In this document: positions 386 to 54,625 of the stretch, piece by piece
Numbering within the stretch: position 1 is the first letter of the stretch
Layout: the number at the start of each line of letters is the position of its first letter
NCBI GenBank assembly: GCA_964016885.1
Contig: OZ024742.1
Coordinates: 207,824,001 to 207,888,000, forward strand
Length of the DNA stretch: 64,000 bases
Origin: Eledone cirrhosa
Lineage: Eukaryota
Direction of reading: 5' to 3'
Notes under the pieces: model-generated
What the model saw: the letters and a program-made list of their open reading frames with translations, nothing else
Told to the model about the DNA's origin: nothing
Databases searched by the model: none
Program-made: the position numbers and the translations under genes

Positions 386-3300
386 AACCCGTGACCAAGA
401 AATACCGGATGGCGGCCGGCGGGGAATAGCCGTGTCTCTAGGGGAGAACGACCCCTCTAGTCTTGGTTGACACTCGTTCTAGAAGTGGTAACACGAAATG
501 ATTACCCCTTGGCGGATAAGGATAAAACGCGACAAAATAAAGTAAATGTCTAATGATGAAATCTCATACCGGATCGGCCGTCACCCGGGTAAAAAAGGGC
601 CGCGTCCCTCAGAGAGGAACCAGACTGGGGTCGAAAAATCAGCTAATGGTTCAAACCTTCCCATCACTTCGGAGCTGGAGACCTCCCATGAACGGAATAC
701 TCCTACTGTTGGCCCTCCATGCTCACCACCAAGAAATCCAAAGGAAAAGAGAGAAAAATGGTCAAGGGAAGATAATAAAGAAGTCCTTGAGGCTTTCTAC
801 ACTGCCATGTACTACCCATCAAATACATCGAATACAGAACAGACATATATCAACTGGAAAAAGAAACATCCCGAAAACAGAGGCTATATTGACAGTAACA
901 AACTAGCCAATATACGAAGAAATATTGTAAGAAAAAAGTTACTTACTGATATAGAAATTGATCAGATCAAGCTATTAGCACAAAGTCAGCGAAGGGAAAA
1001 TGAAACATGTGTCAGTGAAAACGAGGTAAACTGTAACACTTCGAATCCCAGGGTTGGGGCGGAATCACTGGCAACAGAACAAATTAAAGAAAGGATCGAA
1101 AAAGTGAAGGAAGTGCATGCTCAGGATGAAACTCCAAATGAAAATAATGAGATCGTAAATGATAAAGAAATGAATGAGAATGAACTTGCCAACTTGAAGG
1201 ATGAAATTATGATCGAATGGATGAAAATGAAAGAATCTGACATGGGGAAACGAGACACCCTCCCTAAGATCCAGAACTCCAAACAGAACCAAAAGATAAT
1301 ACACAAGACTAACATAATTCTCAAAAACATTATCATCACAAACAAACTAAACATTACTGATTTAAATCATCTCTATTATGCATCGGCTAAAGTCACCACT
1401 CACTTATGTGGAGTGAAGATGAAAAAACAAAGGAATTCCCACAAGAAATCTACTTGGCAAGAGAACATCAATCGCCAAATAAACCTTCTCCGATCTGACA
1501 TAGATAACAAACTATAAAGTAGGTGAACATGTTAAACAAACTAAACTTAGAAAATTGAAAAAAAAGTACAGTATAAAATCAACATGTGACATAGACATGC
1601 TGATAGAAATAATCAAGCAAAAAGTGTCGGCCAAAGCTGCTCGTATAAAGCGCTTTGAAAAACGATCTAGATTCTATAAGGACAATAATATGTTCAAAAA
1701 CAACCAAAGCAACTTCTACAGAAAAATTGGTAAGTCAACAATAACTGCTAAATCAATACCACCCAAGGAGGAAGTGCAAGAATTCTGGGAAAAGATCTGG
1801 GCCGAAGAAAAAGTTCATAACATACATGCCGCATGGATAGACAGACAAATGAAAGATACAGCTCAACTTGAGGAACAAATATGGGAAAATATAACAGTTG
1901 AACAGCTGCGCTTGGCTCTAAGAAAATCCAGCAAATGGATATCTCCAGGAAAGACAAAATACAAAACTTTTGGATAAATGCCTTCACAGAGTCTCATGAG
2001 CTGTTAGCCCAACTTTACAATGAAATAGTTAAGGAGCCAGAAAAGATACCACCATGGCTAGTTAACGGCATTACATTCCTGCTTCCGAAGAATGATGAGA
2101 CAAACAATCCCAAAAATTACAGACCGATAACTTGCTTGACCACAATGTATAAAATTTTAACATCAGTCCTAACTGAATACACATATGACCACCTGATAAC
2201 AAATGACCTATTTCCCATTGAGCAGAAAGGGTGTAAACGAGGCTCATATGGCTGTAAGGATCAGCTTCTGGTTAACAAAATGATACTGGAAGATTGTCAT
2301 AATAGACACAAAAATCTATCGATTGCTTGGATAGATTATAAAAAAGCATTCGATAGTTTGCCACACAGATGGATTGAAAAATGTTTAGAGATTTTCAAAA
2401 TATCCCCCGTTGTCAGGAGGTTTTTGTCATTCAGTATGAAGACATGGAAAACGACACTCCTTTTGAATAGAGAAACAAAATCACTGGAAGCTGGAGAAGT
2501 TAATATTAATTGTGGAATTTTTCAGGGTGACTCTGTATCACCGCTTTTATTCTGCATCGCACTTATACCATTAAGTAAAATGCTCAATGAAACAAAACAC
2601 GGATATAAAATCTATGACAAAACCATTAATCACCTGTTCTACATGGATGACCTGAAACTATTTGCAAAAAATGATGAACAATTGCAAGGGCTATTATCCA
2701 CTGTGGAGCAGTTCAGTGATGACATTAAAATGGAGTTTGGACTAGATAAATGCGCCAAAGCAACGTTCACCAGAGGAAAGCTGCTGAAGAGTTCAGACAT
2801 TAATCTTGATCGGGGGAACGTGATAAGAGAACTTGATCAAGAAAAAACTTACAAATATCTAGGTGTTTGTGAAGGAGATGGAATCAAGCACTCGACAATG
2901 AGGGAAAGGATAAGGAAGGAATGTTACCGCAGAGTAAGAGCAATCTTAAGAACGGAATTGAATGCAAGGAATAGGATCGATGCCATAAACACGCTTGCCA
3001 TACCAGTAGTAACCTACAGTTACAATGTCATCAACTGGTCAAGCACAGAGATCCGTAGGCTCGATACAAAAATTTGAAAATTCTTAACCATGCACATAAT
3101 GCATCACCCTAAGGCAGATATAGATAGAATATATCTCCCTAGGAAAGAAGGAGGACGTGGGTTAATCCAGTTAGACATTGCGTTGAAAACTGCAACAATT
3201 GAATTATCTATATATCTAAGGGAATCACATGATTGGATGATCAAACTCGTTTTGAACCACAAAGCATCAAATGATCATATTCCATTACAAAAGATGCACA

Positions 3301-4345
3301 AAGATACAGTAATGGACTACACATTTCAGAAGTCCCATTTACTGCTGAAATGGAAAACACAGAAAAAGCAAAGCAGGTAAAAGTAACTGCAAAGAAAGAA
3401 CTGCTACAGAAACTGGCTAAGAAATGGCAAGAAAAGCCTCTGTATGGAAAATACCCAGAGCGAGCTAACAATCCTGATGTTGACAAAACTTTAACCCATC
3501 AGTGGTTGGCATCCTCTGGACTGAAATCGGAGACTGAAGGACTGATTATATCGGCACAAGATCAGTGTCTGCCAACAAAAAATTACCAAGCCAGCATAAT
3601 AAAAAATGGATGCAGCCCATTATGCCGTGTATGCAAAAAACAACCAGAGACCATTGACCATATAATTTCAATGTGCAGTCCTATAGCTCCAACCGAATAC
3701 CTAAGCAGGCATGACAGAGCTGCACAATACATACATTGGATAATGTGTAAGCATCTTGACCTGCCCCATCAAAAGAATTGGTGGGAGCATCAACCACCTC
3801 CCATACTTGAAAAAGATCACATCTCAATCTTGTGGAACTTTAGCATCCAAACAGACCGAAAAATAGATGCAAATAGACCTGATATAATATTGAAGGACTT
3901 TAAAAATAGGGTATGCCTGCTAATTGATATGTCTGTTCCAATAGACAAGAATGTATCTATAAAAACATTTGAAAAATTGAGCAACTATAAGGACCGGGAG
4001 ATAGAAATTGGAAAAATGTGGAAATTGAGAACTAAAACAATACCAGTGGTTGTAGGCGCTCTGGGAATGATACCTAAGGGGTCTAATGATTACTTATCGC
4101 AAATCCCAGGAAACCCGCGTATAGGAGAAATACGAAAGATAGTACTAATGGGAACTGCCCATATACTAAGGAAGATTCTGTCAATAAAAGTACATCACAA
4201 GTCTAAACACTAAAGATGCATGTGTGAGTATGTATGTTCTTTCTTGAACATGGCGGACCTTGTTGTCTCTTGAGGTCACTGGTTGTGACTTGGTGATAAC
4301 TCGTATGAACATAAAGGAAGATAAATGCAACTGTAAAAATAATAA
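386..4345 (+). mobile_element. R4/Dong-clade non-LTR retrotransposon (RT + restriction-like endonuclease), near full length
   Basis: Chained ORFs 546-4213 carry RT motifs (NYRPITCL, WIDYKKAFDS, GIFQGDS, LFYMDD), a CCHC finger (CRVC..ETIDHIISMC), RHD, and PD..D..K RLE motifs. The 3' end runs into (TAA)n at ~4340, the known Dong target. Confidence 0.93.
546..4213 (+). pseudogene. Single RT-RLE ORF of the Dong-like element, broken by a few stops and frameshifts
   Basis: ORF pieces 546-1517, 1555-1977, 1935-3077, 3090-3380 and 3350-4213 join into one R4/Dong-type polyprotein. Confidence 0.9.
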
Positions 4346-6859: not shown

Positions 6860-9800
6860 GTGCTAAAATCAGCGGTGGTTATGTAACCATTCATTCACCA
6901 ATCCTCGATATGAGTGTTTAAATGTCGAACCTAAACAGTTCGAATAACGGTGTAAAGGAGACTGAACGTCATGTGAAAGACTCTCACCCAGCAAGTGCTC
7001 CCTGGATCAACAGCAGGGATCTGGTTGTCATCCAAATACTGCTTGTGCTGGAGGAAGAAGTAGGAATGGGACAAGAATCAACTGGACGAGAGAATTGAAT
7101 AGAACTATCATGAAATGTTACCTGAAGAGTAACGCCATGGAAAAGGGCTGTAGAAAACGGGTGCATAACATCTGCAACGAGATTGGTCTAATTAAATTAG
7201 ATGAACAAAAATTGGCCGGACAGGCTCGGGTAATAAGAACTAATGGATGGATAAGCAAGTTGGAACTGGAGGAACTGAGCAGAGAGATTAAGTTGGGAAT
7301 GGAGAGTGGAGTATATCAGGCAAATGAGCCAGTGGTGAAATGAAGGTGAAGAGGTTGAGAGACCTGAGGAAGCATCCGATGCAGACAATAATCTGAATGC
7401 TGAAATAAATAACATCTGGAACAAAGTTACGGCCATTGAGGAAATGAATGCTGACGGGCTAGGGCAAGATTTGGTTGAAATCCTGCTCTTAGTGGTAGAT
7501 GAAATGAACAAAGACAGTGGAAAACCTACGAATCTAAGATTTGTAGACAGGAAAAAGTTAAAAGAAACAACAGCTAAGGCAAACAAAGTCATCCCATACC
7601 TTGAGGCGAGGAACCTTCACCAATGCAACAATATCCTCAAAGCAACCGCAAATGTGCTGAGGAAATTACATGGCATAAAAACGAGAGGAAGCAACATACA
7701 AGAAAGATCAGAACCTTGGTGGAAGAAACGACTGAATGGTCAAATCAAAGAAATGAGAAAATACATTGGAAAGCTTGAGTCCTTACTGAATGGGACATTA
7801 CAAAACATAGATACTAAAGATAGATTGAAAATAAAATACAAAACTAGGGGGAAAAAAGCTAAATATTATCATAGAAGAACTGAAGCAATGCATTGTAGCA
7901 AAAATTGAAGAGATTAGGCGCTATGAGAACAGAGTTAGTCAGTATAGACAGAACCGCATGTCTGACAACACCCAGAAGATGTTGTTTAAACAACTTGAAG
8001 GGGAAGAAAGAGGCAACGATGTGATCAATGAGGCGAAAGAGACTAAGACATTCTGGAGAGGAATATGGGAGCAGGATGAACATAATAGTCAGGCAGTGTA
8101 GATTGAGACAGTTCAAAAAGAGATTAGTGAACAAGCACACCAACAACCTGATTTGAGTATCACAGTTGAAACTCTTAAAGCGCAGGCCAAAAAACTAACC
8201 AACTGGAAACCACCAGGCCCAGATGGTGTGCAGGTGTATTGGATTAAAAATATAAGATCCCTCCACCCGAAACTGACAACCATGTTCAATGACTGCTTGA
8301 TGTCCAGTGAAATATCAGAGTGGTTGACAAAAGGTACCACAGTTCTGGTAATGAAATACCGAATCAAGGGTAATGATGTTGCCAAGTATAGGCCTATCAC
8401 ATGTCTGTCCGTAATGTGGAAACTGTTAACAAGCTTTGTATCTGAGGAAATCGACCATCACCTCCACATAAACAACTTGTTACCGGACGAACAGAAGGGA
8501 TGCCGAAAGAAGACCCGTGGTACAAAAGACCAGTTACTTATTGATAAGATTGTACTGAGGAATTGCAAGAGGAGGTATACTGGTCTTGCCATGGGATGGA
8601 TAGATTACAAAACGGCATTCGACATATTACCTCATTCTTGGATAACCAAACGCCTAGAAGTCTTCAAGGTGGCAGATAACATCAGACAGTTATTGAGCAA
8701 AAGTATGAAGTTGTAGCGAAGCGACACCTGTCGTCTACTTGGGGACAGCTATGCAGAGTTACCTGCACATAGCTCTGACGTCACAAACTGATGTCACCAA
8801 AAATAATTCACTCTCCGGCGGCGATTTGCGAAGAGACCTCACGAATAATTTTGGAGCTGACTTCTTCCTATGAAGAGATGATTTCTGCCTTTTCTCTCTA
8901 GAGATGACTTCTGCCTTCTCTCCCTAGATAATGACTCCTGCCTATGAAGAGATGACTCCTGCCTTCTCACTCTCTTGCTTATACGCTCCAGTCTTGGAGT
9001 CGCGACCAAGTCACCAACTACACCATCACGACACGTGGTAAAATATTTCTAATTTGTTATTATTGACTCCTGTGATATAAAACTTTGTACAAACACGCAC
9101 CAGCCATTCTTATTCTTTTTAATATTATTATAAATAATATATACACCAATACCAGTCACCCAAAAAGTCCTGCGAAACAGAGTTAACATCAGGTGGAAAA
9201 TCCTTGGAAGGCGTGAAGATCAAGTGAGATATCTTCCGGAGAGATAGTTTGTCCCATCTGCTGTTTGTCCTTACCCTGACACCCCAGACCATTATAGGAT
9301 ATGGAGGAGAAGATTAGGAAGCTAATGACTATCTACACCATGTTCCGCAAGAGGAGTGATGTTGATAGACTGTACTTAAATAGATCTGAAGGTGGAAGAG
9401 GTATTATCAGCATGGAGGACTGTGTTCAGATGGAGAAAAACAACCTGCACAAATATGTGATTGACAGTAGGGAGCCAATGCTCAAAATTGTACTGAAGGA
9501 GAGGACAATAGACCAGGGGATGTCCAAGGAGGAAATAACAACTAGGAGGAAGAGCAACTTTCATGAAAAATCCCTTCATAGCACCTTCTTTAAGAAAACG
9601 GAATTTAGAGATCCACAGATATGGAACTGGGTAAAAAGAGGAGACCTTAAAAAAGCTACAGAAGGAATGCCAGTGGCTGCGCAAGAGAAATCCCTCAGAA
9701 CGAAGTGGGTGAAACGCCATATTGACAAGGAGGAGGTTAGCTCACTGTGTAGGATATGTGGAGAAAAAGATAGGAGACTGTGGCTAACATTGTATCCGAG

Positions 9801-10350
9801 TGTAAACACCTAGCCCAGACACACTATTATGGCTGGAGACATGATGTGATAGGCAGGGTGATCCACTGGCATCTTTGCAAAGTAAACAATTTACCACATT
9901 CTGAGAAGTGGTATGAGCATAAGTCAGAGTCGGTGATAGAAAACGATAAGGTGAAGCTGCTATGGGATTTTAGGATACAAAACACAATAAGCCTGGCTTG
10001 GTGGTTTTGGACAAGTAAAACAGATTGTGCTGATTGTAGATGTAGCCTGCTAATTTGACACGAGATTGCAAGAAAAGGAGAGGAAGAAAATTAACCGATA
10101 CCAAGACTTAAAGTGGGAGGTAAAAAGGATTTGGAAATGCCTTGAAGTCAGTTGTCATAGGCGAACTAGGTACTATCTCAAAGAGTTCCCAAGGATGGTT
10201 AAATAATGTTAGTCCAGCCCCGCTTTTTGGAACACTTCAAAAGGCATGCTTGCTGGGAACAGCAAGAACCCTCCGATAGGTCCTGAATATCTGAGGCTTT
10301 TCAACAAACTTTCTAGTTAAATAACATCAATGACTGAGACTCGAAGAACA
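6860..10350 (+). mobile_element. Second R4/Dong-clade element, degenerate, with the RT core deleted and a nested insertion
   Basis: Peptides EPWWKKRL, NWKPPGPDGVQVYWIK, KYRPITCLSVMWKLL, WIDYKTAFD, LYLNRSEGGRG, CRIC and RHDVIGRVIHW. The YMDD region is missing (jump near 9290). Ends in (TAA)n at 10350-10400. Confidence 0.9.
8712..9179. mobile_element. ~470 bp insertion in the Dong RT, probable solo LTR
   Basis: Interrupts SKSMKL|TELTSGG. Ends TGTAGCG...CGAAACA with flanks AAGT/GAGT, and contains short GAGATGACTYCTGCCT repeats. Confidence 0.55.
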
Positions 10351-24095: not shown

Positions 24096-24560
24096 TTTCA
24101 ACAATGTCATTATTCCGTGTCATAATTCTCGATTACCATTGGTTCATAGGTTTCAAACGACTCCGCCCACCTCAACGACGCCAAACTTAGATTAATATGC
24201 GTAATGCCAATGAGAGAGTGAGAGGGGAGAGTCAGAAAAAGAGAGGCAAAGTGAACGCTGTAACTATTACCATGTGTGCGTGTGCATGTACGTGCGTGCG
24301 TGTGTATGTGCGTGCAGCGTTTCACAGAAAGTAAAAGCAATTCGACTTTATCAAACAGTGAACTACAGCGGCGACGGCGTGCAGCCAGGAATGAAGAAAA
24401 ACGGGCCGAACAGCGCCATTGGAACGCCAAACTTCGGAGGCGAAAAAGTGCCGCAATGAATGAAGTGGAGCTCGCTGAAAAACGCCAACGAAACACTGGA
24501 GACAAGCAGTGCTGCGATGGTTGAAGACAAATTGGCTGAGGATCAATTATATATTAATTA

Positions 24561-24919
24561 TCTATATCTATATCTACCTATAATATAAACGATTGGAACT
24601 TTCATCATCCTTTTAAGAAACGTGGAACAACCACGTCTATGCAATGATACACGTTTTACAGTCAGGCAGAAGATGACCATCTCCTAGAGAACACTATTCT
24701 AGGTGGGAGCACATAGAATTGTTCATATTCTATGCACAAACAACGGTACAACGAAGAATCTGGTATATCTGGAAGATTTTTTTACTGTTTTCTGTATCAC
24801 ACAGACACCACGGGCTCGCCTCATACTGTAACCAGACAAACATCCGATACAGTCATTTTCTATTTTACCTGTTTCCTCTTATCATCTGTTTACCCGGGCG
24901 AAGCTGGGTACCTCAGCTA

Positions 24920-24920
<1 letters not shown>
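24561..24920 (+). mobile_element. Non-autonomous Helitron
   Basis: 5' A|TCTATATCTATA...; 3' hairpin ACCCGGGCGAAGCTGGGT followed by CTAG|T. Confidence 0.75.
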
Positions 24921-25012
<92 letters not shown>

Positions 25013-25090
25013 AAAGAATGACACGAAATTTCATTTCTCACTCTTAGTACGGCAACCATCGTCGCCTTTTTGTTCAACACTGACATAGGA

Positions 25091-25134
25091 AAGATGTACT
25101 AGTTTCAAGCTTTATTAGCTATTGTCAGCATCGT
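25091..25134 (-). ncRNA. Minimal hammerhead copy 1 (mutated core CTGACAA)
   Basis: Reverse complement: ACGATG CTGACAA TAGCTAATAAAGCTT GAA ACTAGT A CATCTT. Confidence 0.6.
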
Positions 25135-25682
25135 ATACCTTCCTGCCAGACGATTGAACGTCTGAAAGTATATACTTTCACTATGCATATTAACGGCTGA
25201 GCAGCCTAATTTGCATATCGAGTGAGTTAGTCGGCCGGGCAGACCGAAAACGATAAGTGGAATAGAATGAAACGAAATTTCATTTCTCACTCTTAGTACG
25301 GCTGATGCTTAAATGTAAGTATGTATGTATACTTACATACATATATGTATACAGACGTACGGTAGTATGTATATATATACATACATGCACACATTATAAT
25401 AAAAGTTCGGTAAACCCATACGTACATGTATATAGGTGTACGTGTATGTATATATACACATACTACCGTACGTCTGTATACATATATGTATGTACGTATA
25501 CATACATACTTACATTTAAGTATCAGCCGTACTAAGAGTGAGAAATGAAATTTCGTTTCATTCTTTTCCATCTATCGTTTTTGGTGCGCCCGGCCTACTA
25601 ACTCACTCGATATGCAAATTAGGCTCCTCAGCATAGGGAAAGTATACACTTTCAGAGGTTCAATCATCTGGCAAGAAGGTAT

Positions 25683-25725
25683 ACGATGCTGACGGTAGCT
25701 AATAATCTTGAAACTAGTACATCGT
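25683..25725 (+). ncRNA. Minimal hammerhead copy 2 (core CTGACGG)
   Basis: ACGATG CTGACGG TAGCTAATAATCTT GAA ACTAGT A CATCGT; perfect 6-bp stem I. Confidence 0.65.
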
Positions 25726-26165
25726 TCCTGTGTCAGTGTTGAACAAAAAGGCGACGATGTTTGCCTGAACACTGTACGGTGTAATTCGGGCTGTTTGTTT
25801 ACAGACAAACCAAACATTATAATAAATGTTCGGTTAACCCATACGTACATATATATATGTGTGCATATATGTATATATATACATACTAGCATACGTCTGT
25901 ATACATATATGTATGTATGTATACATACATACTTACATCTATATATATATATATAAATATTAGTATGTATACGTACATACATGTATGTATACAGATATTA
26001 GCGAGTATATATGCATACATACACACATATATATATATATATATATATGTACGTATGTGTTTAGCGAACATATATTATAATGCTCGGTTTCTTTGTAAAC
26101 AACCAGCCCGAATTAGTAGCAGTACGGCAATCATCGTTGCACTTTTGTTCAACACTGACTAAGGA

Positions 26166-26208
26166 ACAATTAACTAGTTTCTAGCGTATTAGCTGTCATC
26201 AGCAACGA
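26166..26208 (-). ncRNA. Minimal hammerhead copy 3 (core intact, stem I eroded)
   Basis: Reverse complement: TCGTTG CTGATGA CAGCTAATACGCTA GAA ACTAGT T AATTGT. Confidence 0.65.
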
Positions 26209-26458
26209 ATACATTCCTGTCAGTCGATTGAACATTTGAAAATATATACTTTCCTAATGCATATTAACGGCTGAGCAGCCTAATTTGCATATCGACTGAG
26301 TTAGTCGGCCGGGTGTACCGAAAACGTTAAATGGAGAAAATGAAATTTCATTTCTCACAAAAAGACAACGATAGTTGCCGTACAGCAATTTAAGTATGTA
26401 TACGTACATACATGTATGTATACAGACGTACACTAATATGTATATACATACATACATG

Positions 26459-26493
<35 letters not shown>

Positions 26494-26617
26494 GTACTTA
26501 TGGGTTTACCGAACTTATATTATAATGCTCGGTTTGTTTGTAAATAAACAGCCCGAATTAGTAGCCGTACAGTGTTCGGCAACCATCTTTGCCCTTTTGT
26601 TCAACACTGAATAAGGA

Positions 26618-26660
26618 ACGATGAACTAATTTCTAGCTTATTAGCTGTCATCAGCATCGT
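26618..26660 (-). ncRNA. Minimal hammerhead copy 4 (best preserved)
   Basis: Reverse complement: ACGATG CTGATGA CAGCTAATAAGCTA GAA ATTAGT T CATCGT. Core intact, 6-bp stem I, AGC/GCT stem II. Confidence 0.8.
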
Positions 26661-26977
26661 ATACCTTCCTTATGCATATTAACGGCTGAGCAGCCTAGTT
26701 TGCATATCGGTAAACCGAAAAAATGAAATTCATTTCTCATTCTTAGTACGGCTCATACTTAAATATAAGTATTTATACGTACATACATATATGTATACAG
26801 ACGTACACTAGTATGTACATACATACATACATGCACACATATATATATATATATGTACGTATGGGTTTACCGAACATTTATTATAATGCTCGGTTTGTTT
26901 GTAAACAAACAGCCCAATTAGTAGCCGTACAGTGTTCGGCAACCATCGTTGCCCTTTTGTTCAACACTGACTAAGAA

Positions 26978-27020
26978 ACGATGAACTAGTTTCTAGCTTA
27001 TTAGCTCTCATCAGCAACCT
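26978..27020 (-). ncRNA. Minimal hammerhead copy 5
   Basis: Reverse complement: AGGTTG CTGATGA GAGCTAATAAGCTA GAA ACTAGT T CATCGT. Confidence 0.72.
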
Positions 27021-27117
27021 ATACCTTCTTGCCAGTCGTATACCTTCCTGCTCAGCCGTTAATATGCATAAGGAAAGTATATACTTTCAAACGCTCAATC
27101 GACTGACAGGAAGGTAT

Positions 27118-27160
27118 ACGATGCTGATGACAGCTAATAAGCTAAAAACTTGTTTATCGT
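27118..27160 (+). ncRNA. Minimal hammerhead copy 6 (GAAA mutated to AAAA)
   Basis: ACGATG CTGATGA CAGCTAATAAGCTA AAA ACTTGT T TATCGT. Confidence 0.6.
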
Positions 27161-27432
27161 TCCTTAGTCATTGTTGAACAAAAGGGCAACGATGGTTGCC
27201 GAACACACTGTATGGCTACTAATTCGGGCTGTTTGTTTACAAACAGACCGAGCATTATAATAAATGTTCGGTAAACCCTTACGTACATATATATATATAT
27301 ATGTGTGTGTGTGTGCATGTATGTATGTATATACATACTAGCGTACGTCTGTATATATTTATGTATGTACGTGTACATACTTATATTTAAGTATCAGCCG
27401 TACTAAGAGTGAGAAATGAAAATTCATTTTTT

Positions 27433-27508
<76 letters not shown>

Positions 27509-27552
27509 CGTAAAATAAGAAAATTATAAAATTAACTTACTTACTAAAATAT

Positions 27553-27639
27553 CACTTCCAACTAATTAGTTTCTGGAATGGAGTAAATATATTTTCCGAA
27601 CAATAATATACAGAGAAGCATTCCGTCGTCAGGAAAGTC
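27553..27639 (-). ncRNA. Type I hammerhead ribozyme
   Basis: Reverse complement: ACTTTC CTGACGA C-GGAATG...CATTCC-A GAA ACTAATTAGT T|GGAAGT; all three stems form. Confidence 0.82.
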
Positions 27640-28077
27640 TATTCTCATGTAAGTTTCCAGGCAAAGCGAGGACACTGGAAACTTATTAAAAAATAATTCA
27701 GTGGATAGAAAATAGCGAAGCGTGGACTGAATTCCAAGCCATTGAGAAAATCACTGCCTCTACGTCTGTGGCAAATTCAAAAAGAATCGAACACGTGACA
27801 TCGAGGTCAATCAGTGGAAAGTGGTTTGCTAATAAGACAGCGGCCTGCCTACAACCGTAGCAGCAGTCATGGCCAATATTGCTCGACAAATAATTTGGAG
27901 ATAATAATAAAGAATTCATATCTAGTAACATATATATACATACAGATGCATATCAATGCTAGCAAATATATAGGTTTTGTCTTAATAACAGTGTGGTTCA
28001 ATGCATGGGGTTGCAGAACAATAATATAAGAGACGTAAAATAAGAAAATTATAAAATTAACTTACTTACTAAAATAT

Positions 28078-28162
28078 CACTTCCAACTAATTAGTTTCTA
28101 GAATGGAGTAAATATATTTTCCGAAGAATAATATTGAGAAGCATTCCGTCGTCAGGAAAGTC
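28078..28162 (-). ncRNA. Type I hammerhead ribozyme (second copy)
   Basis: Same motif as 27553-27639, with stem II GGAATG/CATTCT. Confidence 0.8.
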
Positions 28163-28324
28163 TATTCTCATGTAAGTTTCCAGGCAAAGCGAGGACACTG
28201 GAAACTTATTAAAAAATCTGCAACCCCATGCATTGAACCACACTGTTATTAAGACAAAACCTATATATTTGCTAGCATTGATATGCATCTGTATGTATAT
28301 ATATGTTACGAGATATGAATTCTT

Positions 28325-28404
<80 letters not shown>

Positions 28405-39405: not shown

Positions 39406-39539
39406 AAATGTTGTAGTTTGCTTGAAGCCTTATGTATAATGTATAACGTTGAAAGAGATAGAAGGCTAAACAAGGCAAAATGGACTGTAAGATGAGGTAA
39501 CAAAAAGTAAGTCACCTTGTTTTGTTGTTGTTCTTCTTC

Positions 39540-40790
39540 TTTTATCTGTCCAATAGTTCGAGACCTAAAAGTCCCTTCATCGGGGTTTCAGGAACCTTCG
39601 GTTGATAACCTTCCAATTTCCTCTCTTTGGGATCAACATCTGATTATGATTTAAATTTTTTCTAAGTTGTTTTCAAGCGTGTTTCGGTGTTTATTTCGCT
39701 TTCCACGTCAATGACGTCAACTTCCAATATAGAATTTTGCGGAATCAGTTTTCTTTTTTGTATGAGATGTTAAGTTTGTGTAACTGTGGGCGTGTCTTTT
39801 TATGTCAAGTACTGTGTGCTGAGTTCTAATCTATTATTTGTTTGTGGGTTGAGACGACGTATGAGCAAGGCTTCCTTAATTCTTAAGTTGCCCACATTTC
39901 TATCACTGGTAACGGTAATATGTCCGTTGATGTTTCTACATTTCTCGATTTGTTTTTTGAATGAGAATACGCGTGTGTTGATGTATTCTTTAATGCGAGT
40001 GTGGAGTGCTCGATTTGTGCTACCATGAAGACAATTTGTTGCATTCAATCCGGTATGCCACATGTCTCCGCTGGCTCATGTATTGCAGGTAGGGCAGTTA
40101 GTCAACGAGCATTGATTGTTGTTGTCACTGGATTGCTTTTGAGAAAGGTATCCACCCAGTGAAGGGCTGGGGGTGTGCTAGCTGTATGTCCAGTCCTTCT
40201 TTGCAGATAGCTCTGCGGATAGCTGTGGTCATGCTTTCGCTGAAATGTGGTAATTTCATGAAGCAGAGGAGGTATTATGTCTGCGGCGACTTTGATTCTT
40301 AAGTCGATTCATTGTGGATGTTGTGTATCCGTTCGTCATCAGTACATCCATGAAGTGTGCATCTATGTATCGAGTGAAGAAAACACAGGAGCTGCAGATG
40401 TTGAACGCTCGACGTTCCAGTTGGTTCATATAAGTGGTGGCTAGAAAGCCTGAAAGACTAGACCCCATGGGTAGACCAGTTGCTTGTTTGTATGTGTGGT
40501 GGTAGAAAGTGAAATATGTATTTTCTAAGATGACGGATAAAAGCTCTTGTATGTCTTGTAGACGGATGTATGTATGTGTTTGGGTGTGTATGTTTGAGTT
40601 CGTATGTGTTTCTGAGTTTGGGTATGTATGTATATCTTATTAACTTGTTACTAATTATATTCAACCACTTAGAGAACTATCTAGAGACCTATCTATCCAA
40701 AGGTTCTTCATAAAGAAGCCCGTCCAGCTTCTCGTTATCTTTTCTATCGCTTCCATAACGACTTCAGCGTTATCTATCTAATACGCTACC
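39540..40790 (-). mobile_element. Penelope-like element relic (second family)
   Basis: RT MGSSLSGFLATTYMNQLE..FFTRYID; GIY-YIG C-terminal part GSTNRALHTRIKE..LRIKEALLIRRLNPQTNNRLE. Confidence 0.82.
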
Positions 40791-50910: not shown

Positions 50911-53900
50911 TTTTCTTTATTAACCACAAGGGTTTACATAAAGTAGACATTAAGGACAGTGCAGGACAATACAGGACGGTACAAATGGGCATTTCTGCGT
51001 GTAAAAAAACAGAGGTTGAAATAAAATAACAAAGAAAAATTCCCCAATAGGGGGGAGACTTCCGAGGGACATTTGTGGGGAAAGCCCATTAAAAGACCAC
51101 AGTGGCCCTGACCACCAGAGCAAGTGCCCTCTCCCAGTTTTCCACATTTAATTTACAGACACATACTCAGAGAAGGCCCATTCATTCGGGCCATACTTGC
51201 TTCTCTCACCCATCTTTCAACAAAATGCTGGGAAGAGAGCACTTCCCTCTCTACCCTGATTTCCTTTTCAAATGAAATTTGAATAAGTTAATCAGGGCAT
51301 CACCGAAGAGGTAAGTGCTCGTCTTCATCACTTTCAAACGTGTCCACCATACTATCTCTTTCGCCATGGCCACCAGACAGATAAAAACTGCCTGCCCTTC
51401 CCGGCTAAAGGAAGGGGGCGGCGCAATCCTCTCGATGGACTCAGCTGATAGCTGGATCCGTCCTACACGTGACAGCAGGTGTTCGACATAAACCCACAAG
51501 TCAGCAATGCTCGGACACTGGACGAGTGCGTGCAGGACGGTTTCGTCGCCGTGCGCGCATCTCGGACATTCCCGGCTGACAGCACCTCCATGCCTGTAGA
51601 GTTTATCCCGAACTGGCAAAGCTCCTCGGTAGCACTGCCAGGCCAGGGATTTCTGGAAGTTGTCCATAGGCCCCGGCCCGAAAGTCCTTCCGAAGAGATT
51701 GGCTAGTTGATTTTCGTCGACGCCTAGAGTTTCTCCAAGTACGTCGTCGCTCTTCCCCTCCACTAATCCCCTATAGAACGCTAAGGTGGAGTTTTCACCG
51801 ATCACATTGCCCGATTGGTCGAGGGCTGTGAGCGCCTGAAGACATTCCAGTCTCCAAGCGCTCCCTCTCGGTCTTCGCTTGACCCAGGACTGCAGCTCCG
51901 TCAAGGAGACGAGCTGGGGAAAAACGTGTCTAGCAAACGGCGACCACACCTGATTACCGTCGAGGAAGAGGTGGAGATGTCGTAGCCTGAGCGCGTGTCT
52001 GCGCATCATCAGCCACGGCATGCCCAGCCCTCCACGTAGCGGGTGTTGACAGTAGATGGACCGCCTGACCATCGGAGCGCGTCCCTTCCACAAGAAGCGA
52101 AAGAGCAAACGCTCCAGCGCAGTCAGGCGGGGCTTAGGACAAGGTACGACGGTCAGGCGGTAGTAGATGACGGACGCGATGTACGCGTTAGCCACCTCCG
52201 CTCGACCTTTCAGTGATAGCTTCCACTCGGCCCATTTCTGGGTGAGAGAAGCCACCCTGCTCTTCACCTCGTCCCAGTTTTTGTCCGTCTGGAGGTCTGG
52301 ACCGAACCAGACCCCTAGCAATTTAACCGGTCCGTCCGTCCAGCGGCCGACGACGCTGTTGGACGGCATGGACCTGCCTCTCCAGGTGCCGAGCTGCAGG
52401 CCCACTGACTTTCCTGGTTGATCATTGCTCCTGTCACCGCTTCGTATTCTTTTAGTGTAGTGCCGATCGCCTCGATGTGTTTGGCGTTCGACACCACTAC
52501 GGTGACATCGTCGGCATATGCTGACACGGATCTTCCGCATCCTAGTTCGCGCGGGATCCCTCTCAACGTCTCCAGCTTGTGCAGTAATGGCTCGAGAGTC
52601 AATACGTACAATAGGGACGAGAGGGGACATCCTTGGCGGACCGAGCGCATGATGTTGAACGGTTCCGAAAGGTGACCGTTCACTCTCACTACAGAGCAGA
52701 TGTTGCTGTGCATGGCAGCGATCCAGCCTCTGAAGACGGGCCCAAAGCCAGCCGCTCTCAGGACTGCCTCTAGGTAACGATGGTCGACCCTATCGAAGGC
52801 TTTCGACTGATCTAAATTGATCAAAGACCAACCCGTGCCAGGTTCCCTAGCTACCCTCTCTACGATGTATCGCATGAGGTGGAGGTTGTCGTGGATGGAT
52901 CTGTCGGGAATGGCGCATGTCTGTGCCTCTCCCACCAGACCACCAACGACAAGCGCCAACCTCTTTGCTAGCACCTTGGCCAACATCTTGAACTCTGTGT
53001 TTAGCAGAGTTATGGGCCTAAAATGATCTATGTTATCCCCCTTGTTCGGATCCTTTCTCACCGCTCCTCGGCTCACAGAGCTGGGAATTCTCCCGTTCTG
53101 TTGCCAGTTGCAGTAGACGTCCGCCAAGAGGCCTCCGAACAAGTTTGGCATTTGTACGTAAAGTTCATAGGGCAGACCATCCAAACCAGGCGATTTACCC
53201 CTTGTGCAGCGAGTCATTGCCTCCCATACTTCAGCGGCTGTTATCGGCTTTTCGCAAAACTCCGCCTCAGTGGCTGAGAGCCGCGGCAGTCCGTCGGGGT
53301 AGTCACTAAAGTCCATCCCTCGATCCGGCCCGCCGCTTCCCCCGTACATCTGAGCGAAGTGTCGCTGAAAAGCTTCACACATTTTCCCGGGATCGAGTAG
53401 CATGCGCCCGTCGTGGTCCACCAAGGACCGGATCGTGGCTTTGTTGCCACGACGCGCCTCCGCCACTCGGGCCCATTGAACGGCTTTCGTCCCCTCGTGT
53501 CTGAGAGCACGCACCCTAGCTCTTACAACGCAGCCTTCATGCTTTGCATTGAAGAATTGGTGAAGGGCCAATTTCGCCACAAGTACGTCGGTCGCGATGC
53601 CGTTGCTAAGCGCCTCGTCTAATTTTCTAACTAGTTCTCCCTCTGCTCTATTTTTCTCTATTGCTAAAGCCTTACTAAACCTAATGGACTCTATTATAAT
53701 CGTATTTTTCATAGCAAACCACCATTTGTTGTTGACGATGGCCCCCGTCAACGCCCGCTTAACTAGTTCGCTAATCCGGTCCCTGTAGGCCTTGCGCGCT
53801 GTTAATGACGCGTTTAGCTTCCAGTAGCCGGGTCACTGTCTGTGAAGTCTATCTAAGTAAACCTCACAGATCACGAATTTGTGGTCCGTGTAGCTGACTA

Positions 53901-54033
53901 TCTTGAATTGTGGATAGCCTATGCTAGACCTTTCTATTTCCCTACAAAATACTATATCTAGATATGATCTGGATGACCCTATGCGATTTGTCCAAGTCCA
54001 CATTGCAACATTCGGGAAATCCAATCGGTACCT
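50909..54033 (-). mobile_element. Young 5'-truncated Tx1/L1-type LINE
   Basis: ORFs 52315-53751 (KSPGLDGLPYELY, FRPITLLN, LDQSKAFDRVDH, SVRQGCPLS, SAYADD) and 51251-52630 (zf-RVT), with one main frameshift. APE C-terminal YTDHKFV near 53880. Confidence 0.93.
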
Positions 54034-54625
54034 GTAAACACCTAGCCCAGACTCACTATAAGGGCTGGAGACATGAAGTGATCCACTGGCACCTATGCAA
54101 AGTAAACAATTTACCACATTCTGAGAAGTGGTATGAGCATAAGCCAGAGGCGGTGATAGAAAACGATCAGGTGAAGGTGCTGTGGGATTTTAGGATACAG
54201 ACGGACAAGAAACTGGAACACAATAGACCTGACCCGGTGGTTTTGGACAAAGAAAAAAGATCGTGCCTGATTGTGGATGTGGCCTGCCCATTCGACACGA
54301 GAGTGCAAGAGAAGGAGAGGGAGAAAATTAACCGATACCAGGACTTAAAGTGGGAGGTAAAAAGGATTTGGAACTGCCATGAAGTCAAAGTGGTCCCGAT
54401 TGTCATAGGCGCACTAGGTACTATCTCAAAAAGTTTCCAGGGATGGTTAAAGAAAATTGGCCCCTCCACGCTTTTTGGAACGCTTCAAAAAGCAAGCTTG
54501 CTGGGAACAGCAAGAAGCCTCCGATACGTCCTGAATATCTGAGGCTGCAGGTAGTGGCTTGATATTCATTTCAACAAACTTTCCAGTTAACTAACATCAA
54601 TGACTGAGACTCAAAGAACGATAAT
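54030..54625 (+). mobile_element. 5'-truncated R4/Dong element (RLE domain and 3' UTR), same subfamily as 6860-10350
   Basis: CKHLAQTHYKGWRH..NRPDPVVLD..LIVDVACPFD..EKINRYQDL..PIVIGALG. Very similar to 9800-10350; ends in (TAA)n. Confidence 0.92.

Follow-up and report, generated by a model that had tools for sequence, protein, structure and literature searches.

Architecture of the window locus

The window, the whole 64,000-nt stretch of Eledone cirrhosa DNA analysed here, contains a block of six hammerhead ribozyme motifs bounded by two microsatellite tracts, (TA)31(AG)13 at 24921-25008 on the left and (AT)34 at 27435-27502 on the right. An initial annotation had reported these motifs, the bounding TA tracts, the lack of a credible open reading frame (ORF) and spacings of 452 and 360 nt between the minus-strand copies, all of which were recovered: a fuzzy search returned five of the six motifs, the sixth, with a 1-nt insertion, being seen separately, and the sole frame of at least 120 amino acids was a stop-to-stop frame reading through microsatellite. 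The same annotation treated the block as one six-copy array, whereas we find two insertions, each decayed and arranged head to head, that come from different subfamilies and abut at a (TA)n tract, since hammerhead copies 1 and 2 resemble each other (91% identity) far more than they resemble copies 3-6 (79-86.5%). Each insertion has one end with and one end without an optional 'tail' of ~50 nt, which lies between two fixed 3' ends and is seen at 27386..27435 (+).

Insertion 1 (approximately 25008..25940), of an older A-like subfamily, has the left tract as its target side. Its minus arm carries the tail end at ~25008, the head-to-head junction lies near 25392 and the plus arm carries the no-tail end at ~25940, with inverted arms of 197 nt (25196-25392 and 25436-25632). 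Hammerhead copy 1 (25091..25134, -) has the core change G8A and the 1-nt insertion in loop II, and copy 2 (25683..25725, +) the core change A9G and a stem II mismatch. A short (TA)n at 25939..25955 marks the point where insertions 1 and 2 meet tail to tail. Insertion 2 (25949..27435), with the right tract as its target side, belongs to subfamily B1, to whose consensus copies 3-6 show 92-97% identity. Its minus arm comprises three units and extends from the no-tail end at ~25949 to a head-to-head junction at 27036-27048, followed by a plus arm of one 5'-truncated unit with its tail end at 27435. Copies 3 (26166..26208, -) and 5 (26978..27020, -) combine an intact core with a broken stem I, copy 4 (26618..26660, -) retains an intact core and stems I and II with one change in the helix III palindrome, and copy 6 (27118..27160, +) has the core change G12A and an altered palindrome. 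Copy 4 is thus the sole near-intact copy of the six, the other five being damaged, and the locus is a decayed fossil, an ordinary copy of its family.

The two spacings had been taken as monomer sizes; a tandem dimer instead sets the monomer at 423 nt, the 360-nt spacing representing a unit with two deletions and the 452-nt spacing a unit with an extra fragment. The internal TA/CA microsatellite that had been proposed is present in the unit (27280..27385, +), with the correction that this TA/CA-rich segment is predicted, from folds of homologous monomers and from self-inverted matches, to form a long hairpin directly before the first (no-tail) 3' end.

Several other repeats were seen in the window. 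A further fold-back and direct-repeat element, flanked by two (TA)n tracts, lies to the right of the block at 27499-28330, with arms at 27904-28017 and 28217-28330 that are 99% complementary and direct repeats ~524 nt apart. Before the left TA tract, a repeat at 24540-24920 has a short hairpin and a CTAG end, and may be akin to a non-autonomous Helitron end. Frameshifted LINE-like reverse transcriptase (RT) ORFs of at least two kinds were found at 546-4213, 6966-9813 and 51251-54542.

A dispersed family of short non-coding units

The genome measures 3.0 Gb. One of its hemocyanin exons scored about 650-659 bits on its best PDB functional units, from the squid and octopus entries 6r83, 4yd9 and 1js8, compared with at most 507 bits on the units listed for other entries, in agreement with a cephalopod source. 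In this genome a 201-nt query for the unit returned 2,249 candidate matches. An exact 31-mer from subfamily B occurred 822 times and a degenerate core covering subfamilies A-D gave 25,525 exact matches, whereas the reversed controls gave 0 in both cases, so the motifs are not chance occurrences. The unit measures about 425 nt across this dispersed family, subfamily C units being longer (468-577 nt) mainly through their TA tract. Around the ribozyme, identity between subfamily consensuses is 80-99%, and that of copies to their own consensus 96.7-98.7%. Tandem runs reach 13 units per arm. Only short frames are present within the unit and units abut directly, from which we judge the family to be non-LTR and without a protein of its own. 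The earlier description of a retrozyme-like non-coding family therefore stands, with units head to tail, no ORF between them and no coding parent found in the loci sampled.

With a pattern designed to exclude the ~425-nt family, we discovered a very young homologue, family E (465-468 nt; 5,142 exact cores, control 0), which is colinear with the ~425-nt unit at 63.5% identity (E 9e-28). Family E has a fully paired helix II, and its two-armed arrays reach 22 units that are nearly identical, a young example being L187/L188 at G000:C1:30831600-30840900, with L204/L220 and L189 as others. The 423-nt monomer and the 468-nt homologue are both short non-coding tandem units of the kind described for non-LTR retrozymes (150-450 bp). 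Together with an intact Penelope ORF (see below), the genome thus combines more than 30,000 intact hammerhead cores with very young arrays.

Structure and conservation of the hammerhead ribozyme

The ribozyme alignment comprised seven frequent types hand-picked from the 22 commonest 55-nt variants, with rarer and CpG-decayed variants left out. These types agreed at every core position and throughout the 6-nt palindrome of helix III, and varied at positions 7 and 17, where hammerheads are tolerant of change. Conservation of the catalytic core across copies, which the initial annotation had made a condition of its reading, was therefore observed despite the divergence between the two families, and the helix I bulge and loop II motif were also invariant between them. 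The covariation that it had likewise proposed to look for was found as two-sided changes at 6 of 17 pairs, a number reached in none of 500 shuffles, in a structure drawn from the same seven chosen rows; the paired fraction was 91%, compared with 31-48% in slid controls. Because all six two-sided changes involve family E, this covariation amounts to one deep split and one further change in subfamily D.

The hammerhead of the family is of type I, with a helix I of 6-7 bp plus an extension, a helix II of 4-5 bp and a palindromic helix III of 2 bp. The base of helix II is a C-A or U-U mismatch in subfamilies A-D and G-C in one of the seven types, and in the window subfamilies a mismatch replaces the conserved G-C pair at this position. 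The motif had been called minimal, a term that does not fit these proportions: the min-HHR of Penelope-like elements (PLEs) is described as having a helix II of 7-8 bp, a helix I of 4-5 bp, a G10.1-C11.1 pair and no helix III, so the helix lengths, and with them the short palindromic helix III, place the unit with the canonical metazoan type I hammerheads of the same account, which act only as dimers (PMC4209133).

The search with Rfam that had been proposed initially returned no hammerhead in the window at gathering score, nor was one present among the 150 listed of 158 matches at E ≤ 10; matches to miRNA families over the TA tracts were low-complexity artefacts. A young copy matched only Hammerhead_HH9, at 18.6 bits (E 0.023) where the cut-off is 52, with the alignment on the core, and a genome search with RF00163 (Hammerhead_1) returned another hammerhead family, not the ~425-nt unit. 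About 150,000 dimer-type hammerhead variants have reportedly been collected by Lunse et al., and these may include cephalopod sequences.

Folded as circles, monomers of B, C and E gave z scores of -6.9, -12.3 and -11.4 against 30 shuffles each, with similar predicted branched folds in which the TA/CA tract forms the hairpin described above. When single motifs were folded by minimum energy, helix I and mostly helix II appeared but no helix III, and two B copies preferred another fold; such folds do not speak for activity. Covariation, along with the precedent of the axolotl HHR_Amex2, a hammerhead that likewise has U-U at the helix II base and that cleaves and gives rise to circles (PMC7229834), leads us to infer that transcripts of the unit would self-cleave. 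The young arrays, best those of family E and also one locus of subfamily C at G000:C1:212.25 Mb, are suited to cleavage work; the window copies at 26166-27020, suggested for this purpose by the initial annotation, are damaged.

Insertion at (TA)n and resident Penelope-like elements

Insertion ends were examined in 40 stretches round the first exact-core matches of subfamily B on contig 1, picked regardless of structure. B copies have two fixed 3' ends ~50 nt apart and scattered 5' ends. Under a strict rule, (TA)n followed 35 of the 61 3' ends that did not continue into another unit, compared with a 6% background, and many of the others were followed by imperfect TA runs. Arms on both strands were present in 23 of the 40 loci, and in 11 of the 12 two-armed loci with both ends callable one arm had the tail end and the other the no-tail end. 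Family E gave the same picture, with 17 of 28 loci two-armed and 15 of these having one arm per end site; in the two exceptions, one arm had been broken off elsewhere. These two-armed loci bear out the earlier proposal that multimers were inserted at (TA)n with fold-back inversion. A Penelope-type insertion is recognised by 3' ends that are fixed and may bear a tail, 5' truncation to varying points, an inverted 5' arm and an AT-rich or microsatellite target, all of which are seen here.

The genome also contains a young, intact Penelope-like element at (TA)n (L061-L068, L247-L257), with a 905-aa ORF at G000:C4:163.147 Mb encoding an RT with a C-terminal GIY-YIG domain, and with a period of ~3.1 kb. 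A homologue search with this ORF gave 88 proteins, mostly unnamed RTs. Its pLTR has an apparent hammerhead variant, read by eye, that carries U4C and has a palindrome of 4 nt. Like the unit, the element forms tandem full-length copies (L062), and of its 11 head-to-head insertions, which all lie at (TA)n, 10 show the same arrangement of one arm per end. Inverted 5'-truncated copies, a tail at one end and a microsatellite bias are described for PLE insertions (PMC8557442), and a PLE protein has been reported to cleave and extend both strands, with two internal RT start sites bounding the tail (PMC11167929). As the unit and the resident PLE share this rule of ends, arms and (TA)n targets, in agreement with both accounts, a Penelope protein would be what inserts the unit, which thus likely borrows the enzyme of a Penelope-like retrotransposon.

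Hammerhead variants were also observed in older GIY-YIG families (L077, L079, L083, L085, L092, L093, L095, L097), which have a U3-A8 core swap and a different 6-nt palindrome, with A13C in some. In one resident PLE family, helix II has at its base the U-U mismatch also found in the unit. Descent of the unit from a pLTR, which may be lost or unsampled, is plausible, because resident PLE families carry variant hammerheads with a 6-nt palindrome. Within the window, a decayed Penelope-like RT/GIY-YIG remnant at 39500-40640 (-) ends at (TA)n and is 77-79% identical over 53 aa to the intact family.

Array homogeneity and the template of insertion

Copies continue across the hammerhead cleavage site. 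Of 45 family E 5' junctions, none lay 5 nt or less from this site, and no start coincided with it among 56 in B (4 of the 56 fell within 155-166). Given the read-through and the lack of any accumulation of 5' ends at the site, a cut linear hammerhead monomer was rejected as the sole template.

Long arrays were strikingly uniform. In an E array of 7 plus 13 ribozymes, the 18 full units examined did not differ from one another, and another array, of 11 plus 11 ribozymes, has one main variable site. Units of family E differed by a mean of 0.31 edits within loci (317 pairs, mostly from the two long arrays) and by 15.5 edits between loci (55 pairs, minimum 2), and of nine locus-private fixed variants seven were common to both arms. 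In one C array the differences were 0-2 edits within and 34-56 between. This homogeneity is that of the assembly, in which long arrays may have been homogenised. That arrays are near-identical across both arms yet differ between loci indicates a bottleneck of one unit followed by amplification at insertion, most simply by rolling-circle reverse transcription to judge from these sequences. Other arrays departed from this uniformity: two units alternate in L190 and in L222, L191 repeats every four units, units of L223 differ by 10-29 edits and L201 is mixed, with up to 5. Multimeric circles, repeated insertion or later duplication of DNA could lie behind these.

Three clustered A>G changes at positions 36-41 of the L187 unit are fixed in every unit, and positions 203 and 277 of L204 show an A/G mixture in one arm only. 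Among the nine private fixed variants, five were A>G and none T>C, while across all private alleles the counts were 14 and 11, with no overall excess of A>G. The clusters may reflect A-to-I editing of the RNA template; as the three A>G changes come from one locus and private alleles stand at 14 to 11, this is a lead only.

Mobilisation of the unit and competing explanations

We consider it probable that the window block represents two decayed insertions of a ~425-nt non-LTR retrozyme, likely mobilised by the RT-GIY-YIG protein of a PLE and likely copied round an RNA circle, a reading drawn from the sequence in the form of a dispersed family, a covarying hammerhead, fixed 3' and variable 5' ends, one arm per site and within-locus homogeneity. 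A tandem copy would be transcribed as a multimer, in which adjacent hammerheads would form a dimer by way of the 6-nt palindrome and cut the transcript into monomers, sometimes dimers. The released monomers or dimers would be ligated into circles. The Penelope protein would then nick both strands of (TA)n and prime twice at internal RNA sites, one for each tail end; each cDNA could circle its template once or many times, and the joining of two cDNAs 5' to 5' would give the divergent arms. A stronger version, which we regard as evenly poised between true and false, holds that the full cycle is recorded in DNA, a single circle having been copied up to ~13 rounds from each of two start sites by a Penelope dimer nicking (TA)n, so that 20-unit two-armed arrays arose in one step, with the A>G clusters possibly being A-to-I edits.

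Published work counts against the circle, as insertion of the anole PLE in vitro did not require hammerhead cleavage, hammerhead mutants inserting unaffected with uncut RNA as the main template (PMC11167929). The unit could alternatively be a non-autonomous Penelope derivative using the same protein on a linear template, either an uncut multimer or identical linear monomers in turn, with the hammerhead acting elsewhere in the cycle, for example to free the unit from a read-through transcript. The heterogeneous and higher-order arrays (L190, L191, L222, L223) agree with such a template, as does the autonomous element's own production of tandem full-length copies at L062. However, in every long E array a unit variant particular to that array recurs in all copies of both arms, the single-unit bottleneck and amplification that this requires are not supplied by linear copying of an older array alone, and the hammerhead has been kept intact across a divergence that leaves units 63% identical. 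Taken together, we think a linear template unlikely.

Two further explanations would dispense with a retrozyme or with retrotransposition of arrays. The unit might be only the pLTR of an autonomous PLE, its copies being 5'-truncated dead-on-arrival ends, as suggested by an architecture like that of truncated PLE insertions (PMC8557442), by PLE protein fragments near 16 of 156 unit loci and by a weak, unconfirmed likeness (E 0.4-3) between a short stretch of a 60-codon frame across the unit and the C-terminus of a GIY-YIG ORF. An autonomous PLE has its RT and GIY-YIG ORF between pLTRs, whereas here the unit tail passes straight into the start of the next unit, up to 13 in a row, with no ORF between. 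The nearby fragments belong to several families, and at L064, L120, L131, L227, L240 and L242, in a base-by-base inspection covering some of the PLE-positive unit loci, they were separated from the unit by (TA)n or unrelated DNA or stood tail to tail. No colinear coding parent was found in samples of 38 RT loci, 30 GIY-YIG loci and the flanks of 156 unit loci, in line with the initial annotation's view that the unit is not such a pLTR, and we found no sequence link from the unit to any one of the several Penelope families resident in the genome. We therefore hold the pLTR explanation to be very unlikely. Still less probable is that the arrays are satellite DNA grown from single inserted units through replication slippage or unequal crossover, a route suggested for the retrozymes of vertebrates (bioRxiv 10.64898/2026.07.22.740005). 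Older arrays with higher-order periods (L190, L191), as well as the flank duplication at L245, do have the look of later duplication at the DNA level, but crossover leaves unexplained the two divergent arms, their common private variants and one RT start site each at (TA)n, and the young arrays are dispersed, each with its own flanks.

Apparent links to a parent at L064, L093, L120, L131, L229, L236, L240 and L242 proved to be neighbours at a common (TA)n or beyond unrelated DNA. A 23-nt match to the tail at L052 was antisense within a PLE ORF and was treated as chance.

Relation to known retrozymes and Penelope-like elements

The unit belongs to a cephalopod family of an already known kind, the non-LTR retrozymes, for which the evidence of Penelope mobilisation is unusually clear. 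As far as published descriptions of animal non-LTR retrozymes were consulted (PMC7229834; bioRxiv 10.64898/2026.07.22.740005), these share with it non-coding tandems of 150-450 bp, a type I hammerhead, low GC, a highly self-paired monomer and co-existing PLEs, and a mollusc example of 350-390 bp is known from mussel. Circles were demonstrated there, whereas the unit is known from genome sequence, and mobilisation by PLEs was proposed there from co-occurrence and pLTR phylogeny, whereas here it is suggested by insertion ends matching the rule of the resident PLE. The 2020 study proposed that circles are copied by a PLE or LINE enzyme (PMC7229834), while the July 2026 preprint, whose taxa comprise 31 vertebrates, 3 insects and 1 anthozoan, regards the retrozyme mechanism as unsolved and attributes the tandems to crossover (bioRxiv 10.64898/2026.07.22.740005). 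In mostly open-access literature on cephalopod hammerheads and the retrozyme mechanism we found no account of this family or of a one-arm-per-site count, nor any cephalopod term in the searched part of the PMC4209133 supplement.

With endonuclease-positive PLEs and their pLTR hammerheads, in the portions of PMC8557442, PMC4209133 and PMC11167929 consulted, the unit has in common partial tandems, an inverted 5'-truncated arm, an optional tail at one end, a microsatellite target and a hammerhead that lies upstream of the 3' end and has a palindromic helix III. It differs in having no RT or endonuclease ORF, so that the whole element is one repeat, in its longer tail (~50-70 nt, compared with 30-40 in PLEs) and in canonical-length helices I and II in place of min-HHR proportions. 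Chlamys non-autonomous elements such as MRC1 are likewise non-coding parasites of PLEs with multicopy head-to-tail insertions; however, these generally share their 3' end with an autonomous family, whereas no 3' homology of the unit to a resident PLE was detected, and canonical hammerheads are described in only two Chlamys subclades, whereas that of the unit is conserved (PMC8557442).

The retrozyme and its candidate helper obey a common, countable insertion rule of one arm per start site at (TA)n. The family is of value for its young relatives and for the intact element that matches it, since with these the proposed circle-templated retrotransposition can be tested directly. Were the full cycle from a single circle true, they would provide an in vitro system for this long-proposed process. 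The relation between retrozyme and PLE also bears on why PLEs retain hammerheads.

Further hammerhead elements in the genome

A second, unrelated hammerhead family (L169-L186), with 18 matches passing Rfam Hammerhead_1, forms short head-to-head insertions at (TA)n, and no PLE protein match was obtained in those loci. More short elements with hammerhead-like cores, read by eye, occur at L192, L184 and L189 and in the flanks of L187/L188, in tail-to-tail pile-ups at shared (TA)n. The genome thus seems to contain several such families of short hammerhead elements.
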